64,000 bases of DNA from Betaproteobacteria bacterium Ga0077526 (GCA_001464765.1 LNDV01000025.1:247679-311678), one strand, 5' to 3'. Counted from the stretch's first letter, positions 5,589 to 46,164 are shown. Translations and numbers: made by a program. The notes: generated from the sequence alone by a model not told the origin.

Positions 5589-6743
5589 TCAGGCAGCCGG
5601 CTTGGCCGGGCCCACCCGGACGCGGTCGCCGGGCCGCACGTTGCCGAGATTCGCGTTCAGTACCCTGGCCCCCGGTGTCAGGCCCTCCAGCACCTGTACC
5701 ACGCCGCGGGCGATGTCCCGCGCGCCGAGGCGGACGACCCTGCGGCTCACAAGCCCGTCGGCGACGACCAGGACGAAGGCCTCTCCGCCCTCCTCGCGCA
5801 CCGCGGCGACCGGCAGGAGGACCGCGGCATCCACGGTACCCGCGAGCAGTTGTCCCTTGGCGAACATGCCCCCCTTCAATTCGCGGCCTGCGTTGTCGAG
5901 GACCACATAGACCTTCACCGCGCGCGAGCGGTCATCGGCGGTGGGATTGATGCGCTCCACCCGGCCGACGAACCCCTTCTCGGACATGCCCTCGATCCGG
6001 AAGGCGACGCTCGCCCCCACGGCCACCATCCCGATGTCGGACGCGGGAACATCCGCCTCCAGCTCGAGGCGAGACAGGTCGACGAGAGAGACGATGCGGG
6101 CGTCGACCGGCAGCTTCTCGCCGGGCTGGCTGAATCTCTCTGCGACGATGCCACCCATCGGCGCGAACACGCGGGCATCGGCAGCGGCCTTGCGCGCCAG
6201 TTCGAGCTGAGCCTCGGCCACTCGGACATTGGCCTGCGCCACCTCCACCGTGCTGGCCACGGTGTCCGCCGCGTTGCGCGAGATGAACTTCTGCTCCAGC
6301 AATTGTTCATTCATCGTCCAGTTCTTCCGGGCGAGGCTCAGCTGCGCACGGGAGGCTTCCAGTCCCGCCCGCTTCTCGGCGACACGCGCCCGCAGCTCGG
6401 TGTCGTCGATCTCGGCGATCAGTTCACCGCGACGCACCGTGGTGCCTTCGCGAACGCGGAGTTCCCGGAGTTCCCCGGCCACCTTCGACTTGACCAGGGT
6501 CTTGGCATACGGCCGCAAGGTGCCCGACAGGGGAATCGTGTGCTGCAGGGGTCCCTGCGTGACTTCGCCCAGGTCGACCGGGGCGAGCTCCATGACCCGC
6601 GCCTCGGCGGGTCTGGCGGCGTCGGTCTTCGGGGCGCCGCGGTGCTTGAGGGCCCACGCCCCGCCGCCGGCAAGCGCCACGACCGCGATCGCCAGCAGGA
6701 TCCTGCGCGTCCAGGGACCGCGCCGGCCGGGGGCGGCGCTCAT
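5589..6743 (-). CDS. RND efflux periplasmic adaptor (membrane fusion protein)
   Basis: Internal start MSAAPGRRGPWTRRILLAIAVVALAGG (one TM anchor) within track ORF 5589..7481. Coiled-coil hairpin and MFP beta-barrel motifs are present. The ATG overlaps the TetR stop (ATGA at 6740-6743). Confidence 0.85.
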   Translation of the reverse strand: MSAAPGRRGPWTRRILLAIAVVALAGGGAWALKHRGAPKTDAARPAEARVMELAPVDLGEVTQGPLQHTIPLSGTLRPYAKTLVKSKVAGELRELRVREGTTVRRGELIAEIDDTELRARVAEKRAGLEASRAQLSLARKNWTMNEQLLEQKFISRNAADTVASTVEVAQANVRVAEAQLELARKAAADARVFAPMGGIVAERFSQPGEKLPVDARIVSLVDLSRLELEADVPASDIGMVAVGASVAFRIEGMSEKGFVGRVERINPTADDRSRAVKVYVVLDNAGRELKGGMFAKGQLLAGTVDAAVLLPVAAVREEGGEAFVLVVADGLVSRRVVRLGARDIARGVVQVLEGLTPGARVLNANLGNVRPGDRVRVGPAKPAA

Positions 6744-7414
6744 CGGGCCTCCGGCAACGCGGAGGCACCCGCGGCGGGTCTGGCGCGAAGGCCGTCGATC
6801 GCGAGTCGCATGTGGATGCCCAGGTACTTCTCGGGATCGATCGGCTGACGCTCGCACATGCTGAAGGAGTGGCGCCAGAGGAGCAGGAAAACCAGGGGTG
6901 CCAGGACGAGCCGGGTACCGTACTCGGGATCGATCGCGATGAACTCCCCGCGATCGCGCCCGGCCTCCAGAACCTTGCGCACCAGCCCGTATCCGCGACT
7001 GATGACTTCGGTGTAGTAGAAGTCCGCCAGTTCCGGGAAATTCTTGGCCTCGGCGAACATGAGCTTGGGAATGCCGCCAAGCTGGGAAGTGCCGACCTCT
7101 TCCCACCAGCCGAAGATGATCTTCTCCAGGAGTTCGGTCATGGGGCCGGAGTGTGCCTCGAAGACTTTCTCGCCGCGCTGGATGGCCGGCACCAGCCCGC
7201 CGCGGATCACGGCCTTGAAAAGGCTCTCCTTGCTGTCGTAGTAGAGGTACAGGGTGCCCTTGCTGACACCGGCCCGGGCGGCGACGTCGTCGAGGCGGGT
7301 GGCGGCGTAGCCCTTCTCGACGAAGATGTCGAGCGCGGCGGCCAGGAGTTCGGCGGGACGGGCTTCCTTGCGGCGGGTCCAGCGGGTGAGCGCCGGCGAA
7401 GCGGTCTTGGGCAT
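6740..7414 (-). CDS. TetR/AcrR family transcriptional repressor
   Basis: The N-terminal HTH RRKEARPAELLAAALDIFVEKGYAATRLDDVAARAGVSKGTLYLYY is the TetR_N signature. It is the first gene of the efflux operon. The start is uncertain: ATG at 7414 or TTG at 7444. Confidence 0.85.
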   Translation of the reverse strand: MPKTASPALTRWTRRKEARPAELLAAALDIFVEKGYAATRLDDVAARAGVSKGTLYLYYDSKESLFKAVIRGGLVPAIQRGEKVFEAHSGPMTELLEKIIFGWWEEVGTSQLGGIPKLMFAEAKNFPELADFYYTEVISRGYGLVRKVLEAGRDRGEFIAIDPEYGTRLVLAPLVFLLLWRHSFSMCERQPIDPEKYLGIHMRLAIDGLRARPAAGASALPEAR

Positions 7415-7420
7415 GGAGCT

Positions 7421-7446
7421 TGTTATTGACTGATTGGTCAGCAATG
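7421..7446. promoter_or_regulatory. Candidate TetR operator in the divergent tetR / AmmeMemoRadiSam intergenic region
   Basis: Imperfect palindrome TTGACTGATTGGTCAGCAA (TGAC-N6-GTCA) immediately at the tetR start. Assigned by position only. Confidence 0.3.
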
Positions 7447-7556
7447 TAAGCGACGTGCTGCAGTGCGGTCAACGCCGGCAAACCGGGAAAGACCGCGGTT
7501 GCGGGCGGCAGACCCCGGCGCTACGCTGCCCGGGTACCCCCAGAGAGGTTTCATCG

Positions 7557-8924
7557 ATGCAGGTCACGACACGTCCGCCGGCTGTGGCCGGACAGTTCTA
7601 CGCCGCCGATCCGGTCGCGCTGCGGCGGGACGTCCGCACCCTGCTGGCGGAAGCGCAGCCCCACGGCGCCGTGGCGGTGCCGAAGGCACTGATCGCTCCC
7701 CATGCGGGATACGTGTACTCGGGGCCGGTGGCGGCCAGCGCCTACGCGCGCCTGGCCCCGCTGCGTGACAAGGTCCGCACGGTGGTGCTGCTGGGACCGA
7801 CGCATCGCGTCGCCGTTCACGGACTGGCGCTGCCCGGGGCAGACCGCTTCGCGACGCCGCTGGGCGAAGTTCCGGTCGATGCGGAGGCAGCCGCGGCCCT
7901 GGCCGACCTCCCGCAGGTCGTGGTCAGCCCGCAGGCCCACGCGCAGGAACATGCGCTGGAGGTGCACCTGCCCTTTCTCGTGGAGGCGCTGGGCACCTTC
8001 CGGCTGCTGCCGCTGGCCGTGGGTCGTGCGAGCCCTGACGAAGTTGCCGAAGTGCTGGACCGGCTCTGGGGCGGACCGGAGACGCTCATCGTCGTGAGTT
8101 CGGACCTCTCCCACTATCAGCCGTACGACGCCGCGAAACGCACAGACCAGAGCACGGTGCGACGCATGCTGGCCTTCTCGACGGATATCGACCCGCACGA
8201 GGCCTGCGGCGCGGCGCCCGTCAACGGCCTGCTGCTTGCAGCCCGGCGCCGAGGCATGCAGGCGCAACTCCTCGACCTGCGGAACTCCGGCGACACGGCT
8301 GGCGATCGCCAGCGCGTGGTGGGCTATGCGTCCATCGCGCTGTTCGATGGGGTGCCGGGCAGCACAACGGAGGCGAAGGGCGAGGACCGCGGCACGACGC
8401 TGCTTCGGATCGCGCGGGCGGCCATCGCCCGGCAGCTCGGCCTCGATCGCCAGGTCCGCACCGACGCCCCCTGGCTGCAGGAGCCGGGCGCCGTGTTCGT
8501 GACGCTGCACAAACAGGGTGAGCTGCGCGGATGCATCGGCAGCCTCACCCCCCAGCGGCCCCTGCGCGAAGACGTCGAGAAGAACGCGCGCTCCGCGGCG
8601 TTTCTCGACCCGCGCTTCCGGCCGCTGTCGCTGCGCGAGTTCGACGAGGTCGACCTGGAGGTGAGTGTCCTGTCCGCCGCGGAGCCGATTCGCTTCACCG
8701 ACGAGGCCGACCTGCTGCGCCAGCTGCGGCCCGGCGTCGACGGGCTCATCCTCGAACACGGGCCGCACCGCGGCACCTTCCTCCCGCAGGTCTGGGAATC
8801 GCTGCCCGACCCCCGCGACTTCCTCGCGCATCTGAAGCGCAAGGCGGGGCTCCCGGCGGACATCCGCACGGCGGATCTGCGCATTTCCCGCTACACGGTG
8901 CAGCATTGGAACGAGACGAAGTGA
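7557..8924 (+). CDS. Fused AmmeMemoRadiSam system protein B (MEMO1-like, N-terminal) and protein A (AMMECR1 domain, C-terminal)
   Basis: Start MQVTTRPPAVAGQFYAADP with GAGAGG about 10 nt upstream. The N-terminal ~280 aa carry the MEMO1 motifs (APHAGYVYSG, GPTHR, EHALEVHLPFL, SSDLSHY). The C-terminal ~170 aa are AMMECR1-like (GAVFVTLHKQGELRGCIGSL...GTFLPQVW). One continuous ORF. Confidence 0.8.
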   Translation: MQVTTRPPAVAGQFYAADPVALRRDVRTLLAEAQPHGAVAVPKALIAPHAGYVYSGPVAASAYARLAPLRDKVRTVVLLGPTHRVAVHGLALPGADRFATPLGEVPVDAEAAAALADLPQVVVSPQAHAQEHALEVHLPFLVEALGTFRLLPLAVGRASPDEVAEVLDRLWGGPETLIVVSSDLSHYQPYDAAKRTDQSTVRRMLAFSTDIDPHEACGAAPVNGLLLAARRRGMQAQLLDLRNSGDTAGDRQRVVGYASIALFDGVPGSTTEAKGEDRGTTLLRIARAAIARQLGLDRQVRTDAPWLQEPGAVFVTLHKQGELRGCIGSLTPQRPLREDVEKNARSAAFLDPRFRPLSLREFDEVDLEVSVLSAAEPIRFTDEADLLRQLRPGVDGLILEHGPHRGTFLPQVWESLPDPRDFLAHLKRKAGLPADIRTADLRISRYTVQHWNETK

Positions 8925-10045
8925 CCCTGGCCCTCGAAGGCGAGTCGCATCCCGCCCGCTGGTGGCACGCCGCGGAAGACGGGCGTCTGCAGTGCGACCT
9001 GTGTCCGCGCGACTGCCGGCTGAACGACGGTCAGCGCGGCGCGTGCTTCGTCCGCGCGCGAACCGGGGACCGGATGGTGCTCACCACCTACGGGCGCTCG
9101 TCCGGCTTCTGCATCGATCCGATCGAGAAGAAGCCGCTCAACCATTTCTACCCAGGCACCTCGGTTCTGTCGTTCGGCACAGCCGGCTGCAACCTCGCGT
9201 GCAAGTTCTGCCAGAACTGGGACATCTCCAAATCGCGGGACATGGACCGCCTCATGGACCGCGCGAGTCCGGAAGCCATCGCGGACGCCGCGGTGCACGG
9301 CGGATGCCGGAGCGTCGCCTACACGTACAACGACCCCGTGATCTTCGCCGAGTACGCCATCGACGTGGCACAGGCCTGCCGGGACCGCGGCGTGAAGTCG
9401 GTCGCCGTGACCGCGGGCTACATGCACGCCGAACCGCGCCGCGAGTTCTACGCGCACATGGACGCCGCGAACGTCGATCTGAAGGCGTTCACCGAGGACT
9501 TTTACGTCCGCCAGACCGGTTCTCACCTCGCACCGGTGCTCGACACGCTGCGCTACCTCGTGCACGAGACGGACGTGTGGGTCGAGATCACGACGCTGCT
9601 CATCCCGGGCGCGAACGACAGCGACGCCGAACTCGCAGCACTGTCCGCCTGGGTGGCAAAGGATCTCGGGTCACACGTGCCGCTGCACTTCACTGCCTTC
9701 CACCCGGACTACCGCATGCAGGATAGACCCCGCACCCCCGCGTCCACGCTGACCCGGGCCAGGGACATCGCGATGGCCGAAGGCCTGCGCTATGTCTACA
9801 CGGGCAACGTGCACGACGCCACCGGCGGCACGACCTTCTGCCCCCGCTGCCACGAGGCGCTCGTCACGCGTGACTGGCACGACATCCGCGCGTACCACCT
9901 CACGCCAGGTGGCCACTGCCCCCATTGCGCCACCGAGATCCCCGGCCGCTTCGAACGTTTCCGCGGGGCGTTCGGGCCGCGCCGCATTCCTGTCCGGCTC
10001 TCCTCGCCGATGGCAGCTTCGCCCGCCGGACCGGAACGAACATGA
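8921..10045 (+). CDS. AmmeMemoRadiSam system radical SAM enzyme
   Basis: The GTG start overlaps the upstream stop (GTGA). Sequence ...HPARWWHAAEDGRLQCDLCPRDCRLNDGQRGACFVR, then CNLACKFCQNW, which is the CxxxCxxC radical SAM cluster motif typical of this family. Confidence 0.8.
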   Translation: MTLALEGESHPARWWHAAEDGRLQCDLCPRDCRLNDGQRGACFVRARTGDRMVLTTYGRSSGFCIDPIEKKPLNHFYPGTSVLSFGTAGCNLACKFCQNWDISKSRDMDRLMDRASPEAIADAAVHGGCRSVAYTYNDPVIFAEYAIDVAQACRDRGVKSVAVTAGYMHAEPRREFYAHMDAANVDLKAFTEDFYVRQTGSHLAPVLDTLRYLVHETDVWVEITTLLIPGANDSDAELAALSAWVAKDLGSHVPLHFTAFHPDYRMQDRPRTPASTLTRARDIAMAEGLRYVYTGNVHDATGGTTFCPRCHEALVTRDWHDIRAYHLTPGGHCPHCATEIPGRFERFRGAFGPRRIPVRLSSPMAASPAGPERT

Positions 10046-12588
10046 ACGACCTTCCCACGTCTCCGGGAAATCCGGAAGAGGGATCGTCCCCGGTGGAGCG
10101 CGCCCCGGAAGTACAACGCGTTCGCCGTCGGCGACGCCGCTCCCGCTCCGAGGAGGCGACTTCGGAACCGTCCTCGGTGCTCTTGCGCCTCGCGAGCGCG
10201 GCGGCCTCGCTGGCATCGCTCGCGGCGGGCTGCCTGCTCGCGGTCCACCACCCGACGTTCGGGGTCTGGTTCCTGCTGCCCATGGCGCTGGCGATTGCGC
10301 TCACGGCATGGTTGCCCGGCGCCTGGCCGCGCTGGCTGCTCCCCCTGCTGCCTCTGATCGGGGGCATGCCCTGGACCGGGTGGCTGGTCGTGGAGGAACT
10401 GGATCTCCTCGCGCTCGCCGCGGCCGCAGGCGGCTACGCGCGCTGGACCATGACCGGCCCGCCCCGCACCGGCCGCACGCAGTCGATAGGCGCTCTGCTG
10501 GGGGCGGCAGTGCTCGCCGCCTATCTGATGTCGTTGTTCGTGAGCATGGAACGCGGGATTGCGGACGCGGGCGGCCTCGTCCTGGGATGGTGGCAGGGCT
10601 ACTACGAACCGCTGAACTCCGTGCGACTCGCGAAGAGTCTGCCGCTGGTGCTGCTCCTTCTGCCGCTCTGGCTGCGCCAGCAGGATCGCCGGTCGGACCC
10701 CACGACGGAGCACTTCCTCGCGGGCATGACCGGCATGCTTGCCACCATCGGCCTGACGGTCGTCTGGGAGCGCTTCGCGAACACGGGCCTCACGAATTTC
10801 ACGACGGACTACCGGGCCACCGGCCTCTTCTGGGAGATGCACGTCGGCGGGGCGGCACTGGACGCGGCACTGGTGCTCGCGTTCCCGTTCGCCGCGGTGG
10901 CGCTGCTGCGCGCCCGTTCGCCGGCCGGCTGGATCTTCTCCGGCGCGGCGCTCGCACTCGGCGGTTACGCGGCCCTCACCTCCTTCTCGCGCGTGGTGTA
11001 TGTCGGCGTGCCGCTCGGTCTCGCCCTCGTCGCGATCGCGTGGTTGCGGCAATCGGCGCGAAACCGCAGCGATGTTCGCACCGGCAGCGTCGTGGCCACG
11101 ATCGCACTGCTGTGCGCGTTCGCCGCCGCCGCCTTCAGCGTGTTTCCGGTGGGCGGATACCGCGGACTCGCCGCCGCACTCGGCGTTTTCGCGCTGCTGC
11201 CTGCTGCCGTCGCGGCCGTGCCCGGAATGCCGGTGGCGTTGCGTGTCGTCGGGATCGCAGGCGGTGCCGTCCTCGCCGCAGCCTACTGGGGCATCTATCA
11301 GTTACTGCCCAAGGGTGCGTACCTCGGGTACGTCGCACTGGCGGGCGCCGCCGTCATCGCCACGGTGCTTGCGCTGTGGCGGTTGCGGGAGGGGCAGGCC
11401 CCGTGGCCCCCCGCCGCCGTGCTGCTGCTGGCGAGCGTCGTGGGTCTGAGCCCGGGTATCGCCTGGATATCGATGTACTGGGGCGAGACGTCCTCGGCGT
11501 CCGGCTCGGGACTGGTGGCCGCGATTGCCCCCCTGGTCATCGCCATCGCAGCGGCCGCGGGACGCAGCCCGTGGCCCGCGTCGCTCCGCGGGCATGCCGT
11601 CCGCGGCGGCATGCTTGGGATGGTCGGGCTCGTGGTGGCGGTCTTCTCGGGGGGGAGCTACATGGGAGACCGATGGTCTTCCCTGGAAAACGACTTCGGC
11701 ACCCGGGTCACCCACGCGCAGGGCGCACTGGCGCTGCTGCACGGCCCGGCGGACGAGATCGTCGGGAGGGGTCTCGGCCGCTACGCCGCCTCGCGCCTGC
11801 TCTCGGGCTCGCAGGAGGACCAGACCGGGACGGTGCTGTGGACCCGCGACGACGGTGCCTGGCGCATGCTGCTCACGAGCGGCAAGCACGTGCTCGGATG
11901 GGGCGAGATCTTTCGGGTGTCTCAGCGCATCGACGAACCCGGCGGCAACGCGCGGGTCCGGGTGCGCATGCGGACCAAGGTGCCGGTGGATCTGCACGCG
12001 GAGGTCTGCGAGAAGCACCTGCTCTACAACGAAGCGTGCCTCGTCGGCCTGAACAAGATCGCCCATGCGGTCGGCGAGTGGCACACCTTCGAGTGGCCGC
12101 TGCAGGGGGACACCGCGCCCACGCGAGGATTCCCTCTCGCCCAGCGCTTCATCACCTTCTCCCTCGCGCTCGCGTCGCCGGGGACCGCGGCGGAGATCTC
12201 GTCGATCGAACTGTTCGATGCCCAAGGCGCACAGCTCATCGCCAACCCGACCTTCGCCAATGGCGGTGCCCGCTGGTTCTTCTCCAGCGACCGGCACCAC
12301 ATGCCGTGGCACGCCAAGAACCTGGCGGTGCATCTGCTGTTCGAGCAGGGCATCGCAGGCTTCGCGCTGTTCTCGCTCCTCTGCGCCCTCGCGCTGTGGC
12401 GAGTGACGCTCGGCAAGCTCCGGGATGACCCGCTGGCACCCGCGGTACTCGGCAGCCTCATCGGGGTGTTCGTGGTCGGCACCGGCGACAGTCTGCTGGA
12501 CATGCCCCGGATCGCGTTCGTGGTCTATCTGGTCCTCGGCGCCGCGGTCCTGCTGGGTCATCGGGAACCGGACCGCGGCAGGGGCTGA
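10042..12588 (+). CDS. Large polytopic membrane protein with O-antigen ligase/polymerase-like (Wzy_C-like) motifs and an inserted soluble domain, 848 aa
   Basis: The ATG overlaps the rSAM stop (ATGA). Many hydrophobic segments. Loop motif RVTHAQGALALLHGPADEIVGRGLGRY and C-terminal HAKNLAVHLLFEQGIAGFALF resemble the WaaL/Wzy_C conserved R/H motifs. A roughly 200-aa non-hydrophobic insert lies between them. Confidence 0.65.
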   Translation: MNDLPTSPGNPEEGSSPVERAPEVQRVRRRRRRSRSEEATSEPSSVLLRLASAAASLASLAAGCLLAVHHPTFGVWFLLPMALAIALTAWLPGAWPRWLLPLLPLIGGMPWTGWLVVEELDLLALAAAAGGYARWTMTGPPRTGRTQSIGALLGAAVLAAYLMSLFVSMERGIADAGGLVLGWWQGYYEPLNSVRLAKSLPLVLLLLPLWLRQQDRRSDPTTEHFLAGMTGMLATIGLTVVWERFANTGLTNFTTDYRATGLFWEMHVGGAALDAALVLAFPFAAVALLRARSPAGWIFSGAALALGGYAALTSFSRVVYVGVPLGLALVAIAWLRQSARNRSDVRTGSVVATIALLCAFAAAAFSVFPVGGYRGLAAALGVFALLPAAVAAVPGMPVALRVVGIAGGAVLAAAYWGIYQLLPKGAYLGYVALAGAAVIATVLALWRLREGQAPWPPAAVLLLASVVGLSPGIAWISMYWGETSSASGSGLVAAIAPLVIAIAAAAGRSPWPASLRGHAVRGGMLGMVGLVVAVFSGGSYMGDRWSSLENDFGTRVTHAQGALALLHGPADEIVGRGLGRYAASRLLSGSQEDQTGTVLWTRDDGAWRMLLTSGKHVLGWGEIFRVSQRIDEPGGNARVRVRMRTKVPVDLHAEVCEKHLLYNEACLVGLNKIAHAVGEWHTFEWPLQGDTAPTRGFPLAQRFITFSLALASPGTAAEISSIELFDAQGAQLIANPTFANGGARWFFSSDRHHMPWHAKNLAVHLLFEQGIAGFALFSLLCALALWRVTLGKLRDDPLAPAVLGSLIGVFVVGTGDSLLDMPRIAFVVYLVLGAAVLLGHREPDRGRG

Positions 12589-12660: not shown

Positions 12661-12690
12661 GAAAAAAAAGGCGCCGGAAGCTTCCGGCGC
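12661..12690 (-). terminator. Intrinsic terminator (possibly bidirectional) between two convergent genes
   Basis: Perfect palindrome GGCGCCGGAAGCTTCCGGCGCC preceded on the plus strand by A8. This is a U-run for the minus-strand PEP-CTERM gene. Confidence 0.7.
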
Positions 12691-12722
12691 CTTCAATGAA
12701 CGAGTGGAAACGCAGGGGTGGA

Positions 12723-13478
12723 TCAGTTGCGGCGCTTGCGGCGGGCGTTGGCGACGCCGAGGATCCCCAGTCCGGCCAGAAGCATGGCGTACTCGGACGG
12801 CTCCGGCACCGGGACCGGCGCAAAGCCTTCGAACGTGGCCGCCCTGAAAGGGGGATCGTCATCGTTCGGTAGGGCACCCGCCGCCTGGGTGATGCTGACC
12901 GCGCCTTCGAGGTAGTCGAACGCCGTCGCGTTGGTCTTGATGAGGTACCAGGCCGTGACGGGATTTTCTTCCTCGATGGAGATGTCGATGCGCAGATCGA
13001 CGATGTCGTCGCTGAAGACGTCACCGGCCTGCGGGCGGGTGCGGCCGGTGGTGGAATGCGCCGCGCTGCGGAGGCGATCGCCTTCGCCGTACCATGCCAC
13101 GGACACGTCGTAGCCCGCGAAGCCCCGGCGGAAGATGTCGTTCACTTCGAGCACGTAACCGTTCTGCTCCTCCACCTCGAGGGTGAACTGCGAGGCGAAC
13201 ACCAGCGTGTTGTCGGCGTTGCTACGGTACACAAAGTCCTGGAACAGGCCGATGTCGTTGCCGTCGTACAGCACCGAGCTGATACGGCGGGCAACACGGG
13301 TGTACCCGTTGGCTTCCGGCGTCCAGCCATCACCGAGGAAGAGCGGGTCGGACGCGGGGTTGTTCACACCGGTCACGCGCAGCGGGCTGGTCTCGGGCAG
13401 CATCACGAAACCGCCGGCGAAGACGGGGCTGCAGAGTGCCGCGAGCGAGGCCGCGACGATGGTTCGAGTAAATCTCAT
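12723..13478 (-). CDS. PEP-CTERM sorting-domain protein (251 aa)
   Basis: Signal peptide MRFTRTIVAASLAALCSPVFA. The C-terminus VPEPSEYAMLLAGLGILGVANARRKRRN is the PEP-CTERM motif plus TM plus basic tail. Confidence 0.75.
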   Translation of the reverse strand: MRFTRTIVAASLAALCSPVFAGGFVMLPETSPLRVTGVNNPASDPLFLGDGWTPEANGYTRVARRISSVLYDGNDIGLFQDFVYRSNADNTLVFASQFTLEVEEQNGYVLEVNDIFRRGFAGYDVSVAWYGEGDRLRSAAHSTTGRTRPQAGDVFSDDIVDLRIDISIEEENPVTAWYLIKTNATAFDYLEGAVSITQAAGALPNDDDPPFRAATFEGFAPVPVPEPSEYAMLLAGLGILGVANARRKRRN

Positions 13479-14037
13479 GGGGTAGGTCCCTCCGGTCTGG
13501 TCATTGGATGCCAATCCGCGACGGACGCGATGCAACGGGAACAAGGCCTGGACCGGACTGGTGGCTTTCGGACAGCCACTTCTTCTGCGCTGACGCGCAC
13601 GTGCCGGCGCCGAAGAAGGTCGGTGCGGAAGCTCGACGCATCGAAGGACAGCCGTGGGACAGGTCTCGTGTTTTCGTTGTATACCGCGTTTCGTTCTGGA
13701 TCTGCGCCGGGAGTGCCCTTGTCGGCTCACCCGCCAGCGCTGTCCCGACGGTAGTGCACCGGACGCCTCGGCACCACCGAACCTCTCCCGCCCTGCATCG
13801 GGACCATTTCCCGACACCGCGGTCTGATCGCAGCGGGTCGACATCGGGACCAGTACCGCGACTCGGCGAAGCCGTCCCGAAAGTCGACGGCCTCCCGGGC
13901 GACCTTGGGTCGCGCGGGCAGTCCGGCGCCCGGGGTCCGGTCCTGCGGGCAGCGGAGCCCGTATCATTCGGGTCCGACGAACTCCCCGGGCTGTCTCACG
14001 TCATAGCAACGGGGCCGCGAGACCCTCCGCCCTTCCG

Positions 14038-16183: not shown

Positions 16184-16780
16184 ATGAAGATCGTTGCTCT
16201 GACCGCCCTGCTCGCCTGTGTCTCGCTGCCGGTGTCCGCCGCTGCCGTGCCCGGCCAACCCGCCGCGGACTTCAAGCTCACCGACGTCACCGGAAAGTCG
16301 CTGCGCCTGGCGGACTATCGCGGCAAGTACGTGGTGCTCGAGTGGTTCAACCAGGGCTGCCCGTTCGTGCAGAAGCACTACGAGAGCGGAAACATGCAGT
16401 CGCTCCAGCGGAAGTTCACGGACCGCGGCGTGGTGTGGCTCGCCATCAGTTCCACCAATCCGAAGAGTTCGGACTACCGCGATCCGGTGCGGGCGCAGGG
16501 TGTGATGAAGGATTGGCAGATGGCGCCGAGCGCGTTCCTCCTGGACGAGGACGGCAATGTGGGCCGCGCCTATGGCGCGAAAGCCACACCTCACATGTTC
16601 GTCGTCGATCCCAAGGGAAAGGTCATCTACGCCGGCGCGATCGACGATGCGCCCACCTGGCGGCCCGAGGACGTGAAGACCGCCCGCAACTACGTCGCCG
16701 CCGCGCTCGACGAATCCATGGCCGGCAAGCCCGTGAGCCAGCCGTCGACCGCCGCCTATGGCTGCTCGGTCAAGTACTGA
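16184..16780 (+). CDS. Periplasmic thioredoxin-fold protein (redoxin/TlpA-like)
   Basis: Signal peptide, then a WFNQGCPFV redox motif. Adjacent to dsbD. Confidence 0.8.
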   Translation: MKIVALTALLACVSLPVSAAAVPGQPAADFKLTDVTGKSLRLADYRGKYVVLEWFNQGCPFVQKHYESGNMQSLQRKFTDRGVVWLAISSTNPKSSDYRDPVRAQGVMKDWQMAPSAFLLDEDGNVGRAYGAKATPHMFVVDPKGKVIYAGAIDDAPTWRPEDVKTARNYVAAALDESMAGKPVSQPSTAAYGCSVKY

Positions 16781-16799
16781 CCCGGCGCCCCGGGCCCCC

Positions 16800-17963
16800 G
16801 TGCCGGCGAGCCCGGCTACCCGCTGGGACATTTTCTGCAATGTCGTCGACCATTTCGGCGACATCGGTGTGTCGTGGCGGCTCGCGCGGCAATTGCGCGA
16901 AGAGCACGGCATGGCCGTCACTCTCTACGTCGACGACCTCGAGTCCTTCCGGCGCCTGTGCCCGGCCGTCGACGCGGACGCGCCTACCCAGTCGGTGGAG
17001 GACATCACGGTGCACCGCTGGGTGGAGGCCATGCGCTTCGAGCGACCGGCCGACGTCGTCATCGATGCCTTCGGCTCGCGGGCCCCACCCGCCTACCTCG
17101 AGGCGATGTCGAAGCGCCCTACCCGCCCGGTCTGGATCAATCTGGAATACCTCAGCGCCGAGGACTGGGTGGAGGACTGCCACCGGGTGCCGTCGCCTCA
17201 CCCCCGACTGCCCCTCACCCGGTTCTTCTTCTTCCCGGGATTCACTGCGGGCACCGGCGGCCTGCTGGAGGAACGCCACCTCGCGCAGCAGCGCCTGAGC
17301 TTCCTTGGCAGCGCCGAGGCCCGGGCGACGGCCTGGTCCTGCTGGGAATGCGAGCCGCCCTCGGGCGAACGGACGCAAATCTCCCTGTTCGGCTACGGCG
17401 GGCCTTCGGTACCGACCCTGCTGCGGGCTTGGGCCGACGGATCGGAGCCGATCCGCCTGCTGGTGCCCGAAAGCCGGGTCCTGGACGACGTAGCGCGGTT
17501 CGCCGGCCAGTCCGCCCTGCGTGCCGGTGACCGCGCGTCCTTCGGTGCCCTGGACATCGCCGTCCTGCCCTTCCGCACCCAGGCGGACTACGATCAGCTG
17601 CTCTGGCTGTGCGACTGCAACTTCGTGCGGGGGGAGGACTCCTTCGTCCGGGCGCAGTGGGCCGAACACCCCTTCGTGTGGAACATCTATCCGCAGACCG
17701 GCGGCGCCCACTGGGCCAAGCTGCACGCCTTCATCCACCGCTACGGCGAGGGGATGGACGCCGATGCCATGGTCGCCGTCCGGGAGTTCTGGCGATTGTG
17801 GAACCGTGGAGAGACTTCCTCCGCCACGCTCGGGCAGGCCTGGCGCCGTTTCTGGCTGCTGCGGGAAGACCTGCAGGCGCACAACGCGGGCTGGGCCGCG
17901 AAACTGCGCACGCTCGGCAATCTGACGGCCAATCTGGTGCGATTCGCAGTCGAGCGGCTATAA
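16800..17963 (+). CDS. earP: EF-P arginine 32 rhamnosyltransferase EarP
   Basis: TRWDIFCNVVDHFGDIGVSWRLARQL is the EarP N-terminal signature. It lies immediately upstream of efp. The start is uncertain: the track ORF begins at 16758 and there is an in-frame GTG at 16800. Confidence 0.8.
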   Translation: MPASPATRWDIFCNVVDHFGDIGVSWRLARQLREEHGMAVTLYVDDLESFRRLCPAVDADAPTQSVEDITVHRWVEAMRFERPADVVIDAFGSRAPPAYLEAMSKRPTRPVWINLEYLSAEDWVEDCHRVPSPHPRLPLTRFFFFPGFTAGTGGLLEERHLAQQRLSFLGSAEARATAWSCWECEPPSGERTQISLFGYGGPSVPTLLRAWADGSEPIRLLVPESRVLDDVARFAGQSALRAGDRASFGALDIAVLPFRTQADYDQLLWLCDCNFVRGEDSFVRAQWAEHPFVWNIYPQTGGAHWAKLHAFIHRYGEGMDADAMVAVREFWRLWNRGETSSATLGQAWRRFWLLREDLQAHNAGWAAKLRTLGNLTANLVRFAVERL

Positions 17964-18014
17964 TCCGCGGTTAATTCGTCTTACCCCTCCTTCCCGTCTC
18001 TTGCAGGTTTCCCT

Positions 18015-18575
18015 ATGAAGACAGCCCAGGAACTGCGCGTGGGCAACGTGATCATGGTCGGTAACGACCCGCTGGTCGTGCAACGCGCCGAGTTCAACAA
18101 GTCCGGTCGCAACGCGTCGGTCATGAAGATGAAGCTCAAGAACCTTCTCACCGGCTCCACGACCGAAACGGTCTACCGCGCCGACGAGAAGTTCGATGTG
18201 GTCGTGCTCGAACGCCGGGATTGCAACTACTCCTACTTCGCGGACCCCATGTATGTCTTCATGGACTCCGAGTACAACCAGTACGAAGTCGAGAAGGACA
18301 ACATGGGCGACGCGCTCAACTTCCTCGACGAAGGCCTGCAGTGTGAAGTGGTGTTCTACCAGGGCAAGGCCATCTCGGTGGAAATGCCCGCCTCGGTCGT
18401 GCGCGAGATCATCTACACCGAGCCCGCCGTCCGCGGCGACACCTCGGGCAAGGTGCTGAAGCCCGCAAAGATCAATACCGGTTATGAAGTCTCCGTGCCG
18501 CTCTTTTGCGCCACGGGCGACAAGATCGAGATCGACACCCGCACGGGCGAGTACAAGCGCCGCGTCGCTGCCTGA
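18015..18575 (+). CDS. efp: Translation elongation factor P, Arg32 type (rhamnosylated)
   Basis: [14 protein letters not shown]...[16 protein letters not shown] carries Arg at the modified loop position. 186 aa. Confidence 0.95.
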
Positions 18576-29856: not shown

Positions 29857-30000
29857 ATGACCAAGACGGAACTCAAGGAACAGAACGACGCCCTGCGCAA
29901 TCTCCTGATGGAGATCCGCGACATGATCGACTCCGAACTCGAAGCCATGGACGACTACGACGAGGACGAAGAAGAGGAAGAGGAAGACGAGGAAGATTGA
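29857..30000 (+). CDS. Small acidic protein with a poly-Glu/Asp tail (47 aa), hypothetical
   Basis: GGGAG about 10 nt upstream of the ATG. Sequence MTKTELKEQNDALRNLLMEIRDMIDSELEAMDDYDEDEEEEEEDEED. It could be a spurious frame of the upstream ORF tail. Confidence 0.35.
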   Translation: MTKTELKEQNDALRNLLMEIRDMIDSELEAMDDYDEDEEEEEEDEED

Positions 30001-30071
30001 ACGATTGCCGCGCATCACGAGAGGGTTGACCGGCCTTCCCCCCCTTCTGTATAGTGCGCGGCTTTCCAAGT

Positions 30072-30147
<76 letters not shown>

Positions 30148-30169
30148 CTTAGTTTGACCGCAGTACCGG

Positions 30170-30245
30170 GTCCCCATCGTCTAGAGGCCTAGGACATCGC
30201 CCTTTCACGGCGGTAACCGGGGTTCGAATCCCCGTGGGGACGCCA
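30170..30245 (+). tRNA. tRNA-Glu (anticodon TTC)
   Basis: GTCCCCATCGTCTAGAGGCCTAGGACATCGCCCTTTCACGGCGGTAACCGGGGTTCGAATCCCCGTGGGGACGCCA, with anticodon loop CTTTCAC. Confidence 0.9.
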
Positions 30246-30249
30246 ACGA

Positions 30250-30280
30250 ACAAAGCCACCTTCCAGGTGGCTTTTTTCGT
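30250..30280 (+). terminator. Intrinsic terminator after the tRNA-Ala/tRNA-Glu pair
   Basis: AAAGCCACC-TTCCA-GGTGGCTTT stem-loop followed by TTTTT. The same hairpin recurs in every copy of the repeat module. Confidence 0.7.
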
Positions 30281-30285
30281 TGGTG

Positions 30286-30708
30286 CTCCCCGAGGGGATG
30301 CAGAACCCCGACAAGGGGTCGACCACGACGCACCGCGTCGTGGGACGCCGCACCAGCGGCGGTCCCGCGCCATCGGACGCGGGATGGACGGATCGCCACA
30401 AGGCGAGACGGATACACCAAAACGCACTGCGTTTTGGGACGCCGCTCCGGCGGCGGTCCTGCGCCGTCGGGCGCAGGATGGACGGATCGCCATAAGGCGA
30501 GACGGACACAATCCCCGTGGGGACGCCAAAACACGAAAGCCACCCATCGGGTGGCTTTCTTGTTTTGGTGTTCCCGCAGGGGATGCAGAACCCCGACAAG
30601 GGGTCGACCACGACGCACCGCGTCGTGGGACGCCGCCCCAGGCGGCGGTCCCGCGCCACCCGGACGCGGGATGGACGGATCGCCATGAGGCGAGACGGAC
30701 ACAAACCC
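30286..30708. repeat. Tandem array, locus 1, of ~150-nt structured repeat units (two full and one partial) with interspersed terminator-like hairpins
   Basis: The unit core GGGGATGCAGAACCCCGACAAGGGGTCGACCACGACGCACCGCGTCGTGGGACGCCGC...CGGACGCGGGATGGACGGATCGCCATAAGGCGAGACGGACACAATCCCCGTGGGGACGCCAA is repeated at 30286-30416 and 30571-30708, with a partial copy at 30437-30528. Each unit ends in a 19-nt mimic of the tRNA-Glu 3' end. Confidence 0.8.
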
Positions 30709-30744
30709 CCACAGTATTCCCACCAAATCAGTCACTTCGGCCTT

Positions 30745-31248
30745 TCATTTGCTTGGACGCATGGCCGTGTCTAGCTGATGTCTAAAATTCGGAGCGGTGT
30801 AAAGGTCCGAGGGCGCTGATCGCCCCCCGACACTGCGTGGATCGATCGCGAGTTCTGAGACATCTGCCGATGAAATGCGAGATTGCACACTGATGCGTTC
30901 GCATCCGCGCGGCGAGACGTTGCGAGCCCCCACACAGCGCTCACCACAATCCGTGTCGATTGCTGGCACGGTGACGGCGAACTCGTCGCTGCCACGACGC
31001 CAGCGCACCGGCAACCTCCCCATCAGTTCAGCATCGGGATCGCAACTGTTCGCGCGTGGATCCACGCGGATCTCCGCAAACTCCGCCAGCGTCTTCTCGC
31101 TCTTGAATGCAGCCAACGCTACCTTCGCCTTGAAGGCTGCCGTGCCTCCTTTTGGGCCTTCTCTCGTCAATGCTCCTTTTTCGGGCGACACCGTGGCCGA
31201 TGAGAGCAGAGACTTCAGTGATCCGCCAGTCCCGTTTCCTGGAACCAC
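30745..31248 (-). CDS. Hypothetical protein (doubtful)
   Basis: 167-codon ORF in a lower-GC stretch just inside the putative island. No domain and no clear SD. It may be non-coding. Confidence 0.2.
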   Translation of the reverse strand: MVPGNGTGGSLKSLLSSATVSPEKGALTREGPKGGTAAFKAKVALAAFKSEKTLAEFAEIRVDPRANSCDPDAELMGRLPVRWRRGSDEFAVTVPAIDTDCGERCVGARNVSPRGCERISVQSRISSADVSELAIDPRSVGGRSAPSDLYTAPNFRHQLDTAMRPSK

Positions 31249-31346
31249 CTCTGGAAAACCGCGTTCACTGGAGCCAAGCTATCGCATAACCGGTCCAGCT
31301 TCGTCCAGCGCGGGACCATGCGTTTCTGCTCGATGCTGTGCGCCTC

Positions 31347-32252
31347 TCACTGAACGAGTCCAACAGCTACCACCATCGAAGGCGCCTTCTCCAATACGCT
31401 TTGCGCGACCGACCCCAGCAACAAGCCCGTGACCGGGCCAAGCCCGCGTGTTCCCATCACGATGATGCCGTACGCGCCTTCCCTTGCAGTCTCGATAATG
31501 GCGATGTGAGCGTCATCGCCGACAACCACGTGCTCTGTGTATGCCACACCCGCTCGAGTGAGCGCACCGCGGGCTCCAGCCAGCGCTTCCTCCACACGCT
31601 TGCCTGACCAGACCTCGACTACCTTCTCGCGTGGACCAAGAATGGTACTTGCCAAGGTAAGCCCGGGCTCGACATGCACCAGTTGCACCTCGCCGTTGCA
31701 CAACAGCGCAAGGCGTGAGGCAAACGCCGCTGCGCGCATTGCGCTCTCCGAGCCATCGACCGCCAACAGCAATCGCGGCGGCAAAACGGGTGGGGGGTTA
31801 TCCGCAGCGCGCACTATGAGTACCGGAATGGTGGCTCTCCGGATTACTTTGGTCGATGTCGAGCCCAGAAGCGCGGCGCGGACGACCCCCAGACCGCGCC
31901 TTCCCATCACAATCGCATCGCAGGACAGTGCTTGCGCGCGCGTGACGATCGCGCTGGCGGCATCGTCTATCTGCTTTTCGATCTCGAACGGGATCGAACT
32001 TGAACGCATGACCGTCGCTGCTTGCCCGAGGATGTCAGCCGCACTGCGGTCGCGTTCGTCCAAAGCTACTCTGGCTGGTGCGAGTATGCCGACTTCACCG
32101 GACATGACGGGCTTTTGGACACTGAGGAGAGTACAGCGCAGGCGGCTCCCGTCAGCGCCAATCTGCGTGACCCAGCGCACTGCGGCTAGCGAATGCGCGG
32201 ACCCATCCACGGCAACGAGAAAGTGAAGCTCTTGGTTTCTTTCAGCGGTCAT
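31347..32252 (-). CDS. Universal stress protein, tandem UspA domains
   Basis: Two Usp domains (FLVAVDGSAHSLAAV..., LLLAVDGSESAMRAA...) with GxxGxG-like ATP motifs (MGRRGLG, MGTRGLG). Confidence 0.85.
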   Translation of the reverse strand: MTAERNQELHFLVAVDGSAHSLAAVRWVTQIGADGSRLRCTLLSVQKPVMSGEVGILAPARVALDERDRSAADILGQAATVMRSSSIPFEIEKQIDDAASAIVTRAQALSCDAIVMGRRGLGVVRAALLGSTSTKVIRRATIPVLIVRAADNPPPVLPPRLLLAVDGSESAMRAAAFASRLALLCNGEVQLVHVEPGLTLASTILGPREKVVEVWSGKRVEEALAGARGALTRAGVAYTEHVVVGDDAHIAIIETAREGAYGIIVMGTRGLGPVTGLLLGSVAQSVLEKAPSMVVAVGLVQ

Positions 32253-32313
32253 CTCTTTCCTCATGAGAAAGGCCGAACTACGGCATACCTTTCGATCCTT
32301 GCGGACGCTGGTC

Positions 32314-35046: not shown

Positions 35047-35432
35047 CAGATCTTGACCTTTGAGATGCGATCGAACCGAAATTCAACAGACCCTGGCCGC
35101 AGCGCCTCACAGGACCTGTCCGCGGCCGACATCACGAAGCGCGTGCGCTGTCGTCCTCTCCCACCAACCGCGATCACGGTCAAGCCGGAGGCGCTCGGCG
35201 CTGACTCTTCGTGCCATGTCCGTCTGACCAGCCATGAAATGCGGACGTTGGTTCCAGGCGGCAACATGTTCGATGACAGGACTTGTCAGGTGAAGCAGAG
35301 GAGCGCTGCTACAGAGTAAGCCGTGCGCTTGGCGCCTAGATGCTCGGTAAGCACGATGACGGCACGTGCAGCCTTGACCGAGACGACGTGCGTTGATCGG
35401 CGTGAGCGGTTGCTGCGCATCCCCTGGTCGGC

Positions 35433-36302
35433 CTATTTGACCACCGTCACCGGTACGTCGGCGCTGTGGATCGTCTTGTAGGCGGTAGACCCGAGGACCA
35501 GCGCCGCCATCCCGCCGAGCCCTCGTGATCCCATGACGATATGCGCGAAGCCATGCGACTTCGCTGAAGCACCAATCAGGTTCGCCGGATCGCCGCAGTC
35601 GACGGCGATTGCATACGGAATGCCCGCCGCGTCGAGCCGGCGGCGGGCGATCTCGGAGAACTGCGCCGCGTGCTCCTGCTGGTGCTCCACAATCGCCTCC
35701 TGCGACAAACCTCGCGTCTGCCATTCCACGACCGGCTCCTGGACATTGAGAAGCTTCACCTGGGCACCGACGTGCCCTTTGGCGCGACCGATAACGTAGC
35801 CCAAGGCGCGATTCGCGTGCTCCGATCCATCGACCGGCACCAGCACGGGGGCGAACAGCGACGACCATACACTGGTGTCCTTGACCAACGTGACGGGTAG
35901 CTGAGAAAGGTGCACGACCTGCGTTGCGACGGAACCGAGCACGAGATTGCCGAGGGCGCCCATTCCTCGTGACCCCATCACGATTTCCGTGCAGGCCGAG
36001 TCCATCGCGTGACGAGTGATGGTCTCCCCGATATGGCCGCGCAAGAGGTGCGACTGGTAGCCAATTCCCGTTTGACCTAGGAGCGCGCAGAACGGTCGTA
36101 GCGTGTCTTCGCCGTAGGCACGCAGGGCTGTTTCGATCGTGTCATCCGAGAGGTGCGCACGAACCAAACCGGACTCGACTCGAGGCTGGACATTGAGAAC
36201 GTCGATCGTGGCCCCCGGGCAGCGTTTCGCAAGGTCGATCCCAAAGCGTAGCGCCTGCATAGCAGCATCCGATCCGTCCACGGGAACGAGTATCTTGTTC
36301 AT
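35433..36302 (-). CDS. Universal stress protein, tandem UspA domains
   Basis: MNKILVPVDGSDAAMQAL... and VLVPVDGSEHANRAL..., with MGSRGMG and MGSRGLG. Confidence 0.85.
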   Translation of the reverse strand: MNKILVPVDGSDAAMQALRFGIDLAKRCPGATIDVLNVQPRVESGLVRAHLSDDTIETALRAYGEDTLRPFCALLGQTGIGYQSHLLRGHIGETITRHAMDSACTEIVMGSRGMGALGNLVLGSVATQVVHLSQLPVTLVKDTSVWSSLFAPVLVPVDGSEHANRALGYVIGRAKGHVGAQVKLLNVQEPVVEWQTRGLSQEAIVEHQQEHAAQFSEIARRRLDAAGIPYAIAVDCGDPANLIGASAKSHGFAHIVMGSRGLGGMAALVLGSTAYKTIHSADVPVTVVK

Positions 36303-36895
36303 TCGTCTTGCTCCTACGCTATGTTGGTTCTCTTGGGACGATGTTGTGTCGCGCCGTGCGTCGGATCGGTAGTCTTCACTCCCCATTCGCGGCGCGGCAA
36401 CATCGTGTGCGTGCACGTCCAACCCAGACCGTAAGCCGTCGAGCACCTGCGCGGATGTCAGCACTCAGGGCTGTGCGCGATGCTCCCGGACGACGTCGAA
36501 CGCGGGGGCCACGCCGTACCGGCCAACATGTGCTGCCCCAGCTTCGCTGCGAAGCGAGTGAATGCGAGATTCCATGATGTTCCCTTTCCCGAGTGAGCCC
36601 GGAATGCGTCAACGCGGAAGATAAGCGTCGATGCGCTGCGGGAAAACCACCCTATTGGTGAACAACAGTTCTGGAAAACCGAACAGACGACCACAAGAAA
36701 TCACGCCTCACCCGAACCACGGATTCCGCTCAGTGAGCGTGGAAGGCTACTTTGACCTTCGTACGCCCTCGCCATGGAGGATCTTTGCTCGCACTCGCGT
36801 GGCGCGGGTTGACTTTAATCAACCCACCTTGCATACAGTGCACCAAAATGCCTGGACAACGGCCACGTGGGGCATCGAGACGAGAGGACAGCGGA

Positions 36896-39465: not shown

Positions 39466-39805
39466 GCACACTGATACTCGTGGGCGTCGGCGGCTTGTCC
39501 TTTTCGGCATGCGCTCATGACTGACGGTCTCAATCGCTGATCGTGGCGCGTCACCGCGTACAGCCCGTCGAAGGACCGGCGCATGTCCACTTGCCAACCG
39601 CACAGACGCACTCGTACCTGACCCTCGGGGAAGAACGTCAGCGTCACACCAGGTGCAGGCTCAGACCGCCGCCGAGGTCCAGGTGCAGTTCCCTCGCCGC
39701 GGCTGGCGTGAACACTCCCGAGGACATCGTACCCAGATCGACGAACGCCGCCTCGGCTTTGGGCGCCACGACGAGATCGGCCGCGCCCAAGCGGCAGCGC
39801 CACTA

Positions 39806-40925: not shown

Positions 40926-41452
40926 GCGCGCCCCCCCTGAACGAAAACGCCACGGCCTCGCCATATCTGGTGGGAACGCCACCCACCACTGCCGTCACTG
41001 CCAGAAAAAGCCCGATACCTGTGACATCCGTCACAGCTGTTGTCGAGTTCCACGTGATAGCTTCCGCAACAGCATCGCGCTTGCCTCGCCATGCCGGCGC
41101 GGCAGTACGTGGTCGGACGGCTAGCTTGATCGCGAACGCACGCCGTGGACTGCGCCCCAACTGACGATGAAGTTCCTGCACCTCACGGTGAGCTTCCAGG
41201 TAGCACCCGAGGGACAGAACATCTCAGAGGCTTGGGGGCTGGCAGCAGCCGCAATTCTTCCGGCCGCGCCTTGAAGGTGCGCTGGCGGGGCGCAGTTTCG
41301 AATGTCCAGCGCGATGCCGGGCAGTCCCGCCCGTCAGAGAGCTTCGGTGCAGTGTGCGTAGCGTCCGCCCCGCATAGGAATCTGTCGGGACCGCGCCGTC
41401 ACGACTGGAGTATGGAACGACGTGAGGACGCCATGGAGAGACGCGCCAACGA

Positions 41453-43864: not shown

Positions 43865-43904
43865 GGATCCACCGGGGGCTGCACCCGCTCGGCTGGCTGG
43901 GACA

Positions 43905-45750: not shown

Positions 45751-45754
45751 GTAA

Positions 45755-46071: not shown

Positions 46072-46164
46072 GTCGTCGGGCCTTGGGCCCCCGCCAGGCG
46101 CTCCCCGACAGCGCCGCGACGCCCACACTGTCTCGGCTCCGCGCGGAACGTCGTCTGCGGGTTG

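Follow-up and report, generated by a model that had tools for sequence, protein, structure and literature searches.

What does the order of the genes at an AmmeMemoRadiSam locus say about the system itself? The question is raised by a stretch of 64,000 nucleotides from Betaproteobacteria bacterium Ga0077526 (GCA_001464765.1 LNDV01000025.1:247679-311678; hereafter "the window", meaning the whole stretch that was analyzed). In it, a fused gene for AmmeMemoRadiSam proteins B and A (B/A) is followed, with overlapping stop and start codons, by the gene for the partner radical S-adenosylmethionine enzyme (rSAM) and then by the gene for a large membrane protein (MEM). A preliminary description of the locus, made from the sequence alone, had read this tight coupling to a glycan-ligase-like protein as revealing a role of AmmeMemoRadiSam in modifying or exporting an envelope glycoconjugate or lipid. 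Our literature search on AmmeMemoRadiSam found no functional study; Burroughs et al. in 2019 reportedly tied Memo gene contexts to nucleotide-base and isoprenoid modification. The data presented here do not bear out the proposed envelope role: the linkage is lineage-specific, in a collinear relative the rSAM gene is followed directly by dsbD, and the genes that regularly adjoin MEM homologues belong to exosortase A systems. We favor instead, with a probability of roughly 0.75, a reading in which a standard AmmeMemoRadiSam module was joined by a lineage-specifically inserted MEM of WaaL fold; module and MEM would now be expressed together, which does not imply a shared pathway.

Conservation of the gene order

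The linkage was surveyed from both sides. Relatives of B/A were found at at least 599 loci in contigs representing one genome per species, of which we analyzed the best 80, all from other species, with 10 kb flanks; for MEM, the best 80 of about 600 loci were analyzed in turn (individual loci are cited below by L numbers). A MEM homologue was found within 10 kb of B/A at 0 of the 80 loci, 43 of which continue for 1 kb or more past an rSAM gene located directly downstream. From the other side, 63 MEM loci include 1 kb or more of upstream sequence, and none of them has rSAM or B/A there. An rSAM gene occurred at 1 of all 80 MEM loci, namely L089, a member of the same clade as the window (56% identity for MEM and 83% for rSAM, with dsbD downstream). 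Overall, the neighborhood survey that had been suggested as a check on the envelope hypothesis went against it, since the neighborhood is not conserved elsewhere.

In the close relatives of the window, the order B/A-rSAM-MEM is kept together with abutting or overlapping junctions (L002, L005, L006, L007, L008, and L089; MEM identity 56–100%). The stop/start overlaps themselves are kept in L005–L008, L089, and L170, whose MEM proteins are 56–84% identical to that of the window; in L170, the genes for B/A (80% identity) and rSAM and the N-terminal part of a MEM gene succeed one another with 4-nt and 1-nt overlaps. A further relative, L171 (GCA_016125475.1, likewise named "Betaproteobacteria bacterium"), encodes B/A, rSAM, and DsbD proteins with 70%, 85%, and 65% identity to those of the window. 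It is collinear with the window through the TetR-RND (resistance-nodulation-division) efflux, B/A, rSAM, dsbD, redoxin, earP, efp, WYL, AF_1845, and glyoxalase genes. In L171, 112 bp separate the rSAM stop codon from dsbD, and neither a MEM gene nor a PEP-CTERM gene lies between them.

An ~80-nt leader of dsbD (window positions 13960–14037; CGTAyCAT...GAACTC...CGTCwyA) is conserved in the window, L005, L006, L007, and L171. Because it is kept whatever gene precedes it, the leader may be a regulatory region belonging to dsbD itself, and its conservation delimits the variable segment on the right. After dsbD and the redoxin gene comes a pair formed by earP (elongation factor P (EF-P) arginine rhamnosyltransferase, PF10093) and efp (16758–18575, plus strand), which is syntenic in L005–L007 and L171.

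The same distribution could be read in reverse, i.e., the B/A-rSAM-MEM order would be old, MEM would have been lost in L171-like genomes, and the copies found in exosortase A (XrtA) loci would be paralogues. In favor of this, the rSAM-linked MEM clade is deep, as the MEM proteins of L006/L007 are 56% identical to that of the window. However, no MEM gene was found at B/A loci outside the clade among 80 loci that span many phyla, and a homologue in XrtA context (L091, 51% identity) is nearly as close to the window MEM as are the rSAM-linked ones (56–58%). Given this closeness, we argue that the rSAM-linked genes form a clade inside the XrtA-type family, and we regard ancestral linkage followed by loss as very unlikely. 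At L091, the MEM gene accompanies an XrtA-type cluster and yajC-secDF; at L090 (MEM identity 55%), it lies in a glycan context with a NodU-like carbamoyltransferase gene upstream. Neither locus has an rSAM gene.

Table 1. Coordinates of the B/A-rSAM-MEM locus and its immediate flanks, in window positions.
Feature	Position	Strand	Description
TetR-family regulator	6740-7414	-	PF00440 TetR_N; first gene of a divergent TetR-MFP-RND efflux operon
TetR/B-A divergent intergenic region	7415-7556		142 bp; presumed operon promoter
B/A fusion	7557-8924	+	Single frame, 455 aa; AmmeMemoRadiSam protein B + protein A
Memo/protein B domain	7572-8339	+	Residues 6-261; PF01875, TIGR04336
Disordered linker of the B/A fusion			About residues 262-280
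AMMECR1/protein A domain	8397-8909	+	Residues 281-451; PF01871, TIGR04335
rSAM gene	8921-10045	+	374 aa, GTG start; TIGR04337, PF04055
MEM gene	10042-12588	+	848 aa, polytopic, ~18-20 transmembrane helices, WaaL-like fold; ATG start
MEM periplasmic helical segment	11671-11781	+	R544, R555, H558, G575-x-G-x-G-R580; Wzy_C-like "R...GxGxG"
MEM insert, beta-sandwich like a carbohydrate-binding module	11833-12285	+	About residues 598-748
MEM His motif	12298-12360	+	H753-x-P-W-H757-A-K-N ... G770-x-x-G773; conserved
GC-rich hairpin	12667-12694		12-bp stem, between the convergent MEM and PEP-CTERM genes; T-run on the minus strand
PEP-CTERM sorting-domain protein	12723-13478	-	251 aa, secreted, convergent with MEM; TIGR02595 25.3 bits (cut-off 16)

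A standard AmmeMemoRadiSam module

Searches with the family models for proteins A, B, and rSAM all gave scores above cut-off. The rSAM protein matches TIGR04337 from end to end (641.4 bits, cut-off 220) and carries the CX3CX2C motif (CNLACKFC). The protein B half of the fusion matches TIGR04336 with 264.3 bits (cut-off 26) and PF01875 with 173 bits, while the protein A half matches TIGR04335 with 200.6 bits (cut-off 99) and PF01871 with 165 bits. The A, B, and rSAM coding regions are contiguous, and the window holds a complete, bona fide AmmeMemoRadiSam module. As initially described, the rSAM start overlaps the B/A stop, with the GTG at 8921 (within aaGTGAcc) and the TGA at 8922–8924 giving a 4-nt overlap. 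Both B/A and rSAM are predicted to be cytoplasmic, with neither a signal peptide nor a transmembrane (TM) segment. Across the 80 related loci, rSAM lies directly downstream of B/A at 49 and divergently at 14.

That the MEMO1-like and AMMECR1 parts form one continuous open reading frame (ORF) of 455 aa is correct, as both models match within a single frame; what does not hold is that this fusion is noteworthy. A search of 5.8 billion proteins gave at least 8,000 B/A matches, and all of the best 120 (59–96% identity) are 444–484 aa long with PF01875 and PF01871 both present. Many homologues bear the Joint Genome Institute (JGI) name [quoted passage not shown]. At the locus level, B and A lie in one frame at 57 of the best 80 loci, and as separate adjacent genes at 23 (Accumulibacter, Azonexus, Thiobacillaceae, and Gallionellales). 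Fused forms occur in Beta-, Gamma-, and Alphaproteobacteria, Magnetococcales, Desulfobacteraceae, Actinobacteria (Bifidobacterium, Bowdeniella), Verrucomicrobiia, Bdellovibrionota, and Planctomycetota. Fusions of AMMECR1 with a "ring-opening dioxygenase" (Memo) gene, as well as the rSAM neighborhood, were already noted by Balaji and Aravind in 2007 (PMC2034487). The B/A fusion is a common, previously known architecture and is not distinctive. A sequencing frameshift can be ruled out as its source because relatives at 59–96% identity share the ~455-aa fused architecture.

Residues H49, H83, D183, H186, C217, and C326 (LRGCIGS) of B/A are invariant in the homologue alignment. The AlphaFold model shows two well-folded domains (mean predicted local distance difference test score (pLDDT) 83.5, predicted template modeling score (pTM) 0.60), joined by a linker in which residues 267–276 have pLDDT <50. 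A rigid inter-domain interface between B and A, for which structure prediction had been proposed as a check, was not predicted; with this pTM and a disordered linker, and a shallow alignment of 15 sequences, it is unsupported.

Compared to the known AmmeMemoRadiSam system, the module of the window is thus the same in its matches to the three family models far above cut-off, its adjacent genes, its ~455-aa fusion, and its conserved residues (His, Asp, and Cys of Memo, Cys of AMMECR1, and the CX3CX2C of rSAM). The one difference is the coupled third gene, MEM, which is confined to the window's lineage.

Beyond the module itself, the B/A-rSAM neighborhood is otherwise unconserved across 81 loci. 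The recurrent neighbors among these loci, provisionally identified from N-terminal sequences, are ispD-like (9), LigT/2',5'-RNA-ligase-like (7), and ispF-like (5) genes, for example at L064 (4349–5029) and L067 (8644–9141), among loci L064–L087. The ispD and ispF cases are confined to related Betaproteobacteria in which B and A are separate genes, and ispD-like, LigT-like, and ispF-like neighbors probably reflect lineage synteny.

Fold and motifs of the membrane protein

The second junction was also correctly read at the outset: the ATG of MEM at 10042 (within acATGAac) and the rSAM stop codon TGA at 10043–10045 overlap by 4 nt. The AlphaFold model of MEM (68 relatives; pLDDT 88.9, pTM 0.89) confirms a polytopic protein, with about 18–20 TM helices. 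Its transmembrane part has a WaaL-type (GT-C-like) fold; WaaL was recovered by fold comparison alone, and PDB sequence-profile searches with MEM did not return it. A soluble insert with beta strands at residues 598–748 lies within an extracytoplasmic loop of the model, and at ~150–160 aa it is smaller than the ~200 aa first estimated. The insert has a jelly-roll beta-sandwich like that of carbohydrate-binding module (CBM) families 4 and 22. Foldseek comparison of MEM to the PDB gave matches to this soluble domain alone (CBM4, 22, 61, 11, 30, and 6 modules), and the sole match in the PDB sequence-profile search was a CBM, 4mgq, through an "NGDFeeg..W" motif (E = 0.016).

The loop and C-terminal motifs reported in the preliminary description are present, as an Arg/Gly motif at R555–R580 (RVTHAQGALALLHGPADEIVGRGLGR) and a His motif at H757–F774 (HAKNLAVHLLFEQGIAGF). 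Both motifs flank the insert, and R544, R555, R580, H753, and H757 fall in predicted periplasmic segments. In 52–68 relatives, R544, R555, G575, G577, G579, R580, H753, H757, K759, G770, and G773 are invariant. From its sequence, the His motif is similar to the one that carries the catalytic His in O-antigen ligases ("HxHN...G..G"), a putative equivalence. Further invariant motifs in the N-terminal ~220–340 residues, i.e., E118-E119-x-D121, FWEMHVGG at 263–270, and S316-R317, are unexplained by WaaL. An internal duplication relating the N- and C-terminal halves of MEM was considered and gave no signal (hhalign probability 3.6%).

The likeness to WaaL/Wzy_C that had been claimed holds for the fold, with Arg and His motifs that resemble those of the ligases, but not for the Pfam family itself. 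MEM gave no match to Pfam and NCBIfam. Specifically, no match to Wzy_C (PF04932) was found up to E = 10, nor after deletion of the insert, and none to TIGR03097 even at E ≤ 1. PF04932 was detected in 3 of 52 relatives, each time below threshold; in the best of these (P0085, 25.6 bits, gathering threshold 31.7), the match covers residues 452–543, just before and across the Arg/GxGxG segment. Once the insert was removed, PF04932 was found in 4 of 18 relatives, again below threshold (best E 4.8e-7). O-antigen_lig matched 2 of 52 relatives, with sporadic matches to TfpM, RfaL, IctB, and EpaQ. Hence "O-antigen-ligase-like" is supported for MEM as a statement about fold and superfamily, not as membership in PF04932.

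Alternatively, MEM might be a transporter or scaffold that shares a WaaL/SEDS-like helical bundle without being a glycan ligase or polymerase. The missing above-threshold Wzy_C match would fit such a role, as would the size of the membrane domain, with about 6–8 TM helices more than WaaL. However, the invariant Arg, His, and GxGxG residues appear to occupy the places of the Wzy_C motifs, the inserted domain is periplasmic and CBM-like, and the MEM family is embedded in Wzx-type exopolysaccharide (EPS) loci. With these features taken together, a transporter or scaffold appears very improbable to us.

Enzymes of the WaaL type and of the Wzy_C superfamily use glycan donors linked to undecaprenyl pyrophosphate (Und-PP), at the periplasmic face of the membrane. 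Among named enzymes, WaaL of Cupriavidus metallidurans (PDB 7tpj/7tpg) can be compared to MEM, whose conserved, predicted periplasmic Arg residues, GxGxG, and His-x-x-Asn...G..G resemble Wzy_C signatures, at a sequence identity of 15%. Unlike WaaL, MEM has about twice the length, its own N-terminal multi-helix extension with the invariant EE-x-D (118–121) and FWEMHVGG (263–270) motifs, and a ~150-aa CBM-like domain between the Arg and His motifs. The genomic contexts differ as well, with the MEM family in EPS/XrtA loci and WaaL in lipopolysaccharide core loci. A second comparison is provided by TIGR03097 (PEP_O_lig_1), which is also a Wzy_C-superfamily membrane protein of XrtA/PEP-CTERM EPS loci, but measures ~400–470 aa and has no CBM-like insert. 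A TIGR03097 gene occurs within 10 kb of MEM homologues at 6 of 81 loci (480 bits). Since the two proteins co-occur and do not replace each other, their functions are probably different, for instance polymerase in one case and ligase in the other. Finally, Wzy polymerases and O-oligosaccharyltransferases of the PglL/TfpM type share the superfamily with MEM, and a few MEM relatives show weak TfpM, EpaQ, or IctB matches far below cut-off. To our knowledge, an architecture of ~18–20 TM helices with a CBM-like domain has not been described for Wzy or PglL/TfpM enzymes.

An initial search returned 263 MEM homologues, all of them "hypothetical" where named, with Rubrivivax, Leptothrix, and Albidiferax as named sources. 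In an exhaustive profile search, the family extended to 2,406 representative clusters (50% identity) at E ≤ 1e-3 and 1,524 at E ≤ 1e-30. Most members are 790–860 aa long and match over their full length, and some reach 1,200–1,357 aa with a C-terminal extension.

The usual genomic home of the MEM family

In L003 (Rubrivivax sp. A210) and L004, the MEM homologue ends a cluster, after which yajC-secDF follows. The cluster encodes an acyl carrier protein (ACP), an AMP-dependent ligase, two alpha/beta hydrolases, FemAB-like acyltransferases, DegT, and a pyridoxal phosphate (PLP) decarboxylase. The neighbors in L004 score above cut-off for TIGR03098 (758 bits, cut-off 592), TIGR03099 (600, cut-off 478), TIGR03100 (268, cut-off 168), and TIGR03101 (260, cut-off 203), and XrtA-system markers are above cut-off in L121 as well. 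Across 80 metagenomic MEM loci, a set that leaves out the reference loci L003 and L004, the PLP decarboxylase was found at 18, the two hydrolases at 14 each, the ACP at 13, and the ligase at 12. Counted per XrtA-system marker for the family as a whole, 14–20 of 80 homologue loci were positive. Unbiased clustering of the neighbors at MEM loci brought up an Asn-synthase-like amidotransferase (22) and a Wzx/MOP flippase (12), along with polysaccharide-deacetylase-like proteins and family 2 (GT2) glycosyltransferases. Because these recurrent neighbors are exosortase A system-associated families, we assign the MEM family to the Wzx-dependent exopolysaccharide loci of XrtA/PEP-CTERM systems.

A ~380-aa beta-helix protein follows the MEM homologue at 30 of the 80 metagenomic loci, and another example is found in L004 (12414–13550). 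The C-terminal extensions of P0062, P0065, P0072, P0098, P0100, P0114, and P0119 contain PF13229 (Beta_helix) or PF22842. Together, these arrangements suggest that MEM and the beta-helix protein form a conserved two-part machine in XrtA loci; the MEM of the window is without a beta-helix partner.

In the 64-kb window, none of the XrtA-system markers TIGR03097, TIGR03098, TIGR03099, TIGR03100, and TIGR03101 was found, and the sole link of the window MEM to an XrtA system is the adjoining PEP-CTERM gene. The protein it encodes ends in VPEPSEYAMLLAGLGILGVANARRKRRN and is a likely exosortase substrate. This gene is present in the window, L001, L002, and L005, and absent from L006, L007, and L171. 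Given its presence in the window, L002, and L005 and its absence from the other three, it looks like a second, later insertion between MEM and dsbD, in the sub-lineage of the window and L005.

Operon structure and the case for coupled function

The 4-nt overlaps lead us to infer that B/A, rSAM, and MEM are co-transcribed, with translational coupling, from the region shared with the divergent TetR gene. Between the three genes, neither promoter-like sites nor convincing terminators were predicted. The divergent neighbor is confirmed as a TetR efflux operon (TetR, a membrane fusion protein (MFP), and RND), as had been proposed, and L169, L171, and L011 likewise have the TetR and B/A genes in divergent orientation. 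A single sigma-70-like match was found in the TetR/B-A intergenic region, located on the minus strand, and there were no inverted repeats at seed 6. Within this region lies a palindrome-like box (TGACTGAttgGTCAG, about 7427–7443), with a counterpart (ACTGACaaGTCAGT) in L169 (6365–6499). The box is a candidate TetR operator, in which case the B/A operon and the efflux genes could share one repressor.

Such an operon invites the idea that AmmeMemoRadiSam and MEM are functionally coupled, i.e., that the module may modify a polyprenyl carrier, a glycan, or an acceptor handled by MEM and thus play a role at the envelope. The GTGA and ATGA overlaps, conserved down to 56% identity in MEM and 80% in B/A, speak for this idea, together with the lack of predicted internal promoters or terminators. 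WaaL-type enzymes use undecaprenyl-PP-linked donors, Burroughs et al. reportedly connected Memo contexts to isoprenoid modification, and ispD (9 loci) and ispF (5) are among the few recurrent B/A-rSAM neighbors at 81 loci. Yet those ispD and ispF neighbors occur only in related Betaproteobacteria and may be a matter of simple synteny. The linkage is missing at 80 of 80 other B/A loci and at 79 of 80 other MEM loci, the collinear relative L171 has no MEM, and the conserved partners of MEM are XrtA-system genes. In addition, B/A and rSAM are predicted to be cytoplasmic, whereas the motifs and the CBM-like domain of MEM would be periplasmic by homology to WaaL. Overall, functional coupling seems unlikely. 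Its more specific form, in which AmmeMemoRadiSam in the window clade would modify a polyprenyl-linked or glycan intermediate, or an acceptor, that is then transferred by MEM, seems very unlikely.

Proposed insertion of MEM into a standard module

Under the favored reading, by which a lineage-specific insertion brought MEM to a standard module, the locus would be composed of two units. The first, the Memo-AMMECR1 fusion with its PflA-like rSAM partner, would be a self-contained cytoplasmic system, mobile among unrelated genomic contexts. The second, MEM, would be an inner-membrane enzyme of WaaL (GT-C-like) fold with a CBM-like domain in its catalytic periplasmic loop. In the ancestor of the clade, a gene from an XrtA locus would have been inserted between rSAM and dsbD and would have come to end the operon, coupled in translation; the PEP-CTERM gene would have been added afterwards in the window/L005 sub-lineage. 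MEM would most likely transfer or polymerize an Und-PP-linked glycan at the periplasmic face, with its conserved arginines holding the pyrophosphate, the histidine motif activating the acceptor, and the CBM-like domain holding the glycan chain, and it would serve the PEP-CTERM/exopolysaccharide system of the organism. Co-expression of the module and MEM may be adaptive or simply tolerated, and the comparative data offer no grounds for assigning both units to a single pathway. Because MEM would have been acquired in one narrow betaproteobacterial lineage, its adjacency to B/A says little on the function of AmmeMemoRadiSam.

Several points weigh against this insertion scenario. The overlaps were maintained while MEM diverged to 56% identity, which implies selection for co-expression and could be explained by a shared function. 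The preference for an insertion over a loss in the L171 lineage rests on parsimony rather than a dated phylogeny. The catalytic activity, donor, and acceptor proposed for MEM are entirely inferred, and the window protein itself has no Wzy_C match. Finally, the XrtA-locus evidence for this organism spans the 64-kb window, and the surveys cover the best 80 of about 600 loci in each direction.

Other features of the window

A block of lower GC content extends from about 30000 to 46300 (GC 0.60–0.63, compared to 0.66–0.71 elsewhere in the window). It is bounded by tRNA-Ala/tRNA-Glu (30072–30245, plus strand) and tRNA-Phe/tRNA-Arg (45678–46072, minus strand) genes, and may be a genomic island; among its products are a P-type cation ATPase, a tandem universal stress protein (Usp), a Band 7 protein, a DDE_3 transposase, and a Na+/H+ exchanger with TrkA_N. 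The tRNA-Phe called by ARAGORN (45678–45751, minus strand) has the unusual anticodon AAA and an Rfam score of 44 bits. Nearby, Rfam gave a truncated tRNA-like match (46173–46232, minus strand) that was not called by ARAGORN. ARAGORN also placed a tRNA-Thr (61572–61642, plus strand) inside a CheB/CheR-PAS ORF; as Rfam did not report it, this call is probably a false positive. At 55802–58786 (minus strand), an ORF of 994 aa, rich in GC at third codon positions, had no Pfam match at E ≤ 1e-5.

Implications for AmmeMemoRadiSam and for the MEM family

For AmmeMemoRadiSam, the gene order in the window is not usable as guilt-by-association evidence of function, a negative result that we consider worth recording. 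The AmmeMemoRadiSam part of the locus brings nothing new, as both the module and the fusion were already known and annotated. If the operon were nevertheless functional in the sense of a shared pathway, it would for the first time give a lead on the kind of substrate used by this system, whose conservation extends from bacteria to humans (MEMO1, AMMECR1). Exosortase A/PEP-CTERM exopolysaccharide systems, for their part, are said to be implicated in floc formation by activated-sludge bacteria. The MEM family is large, with at least 1,500 clusters at 50% identity and neither a Pfam nor an NCBIfam model, and has an unusual architecture within the Wzy_C/WaaL superfamily; it is a candidate for the polymerase or ligase step of the XrtA/PEP-CTERM exopolysaccharide pathway.

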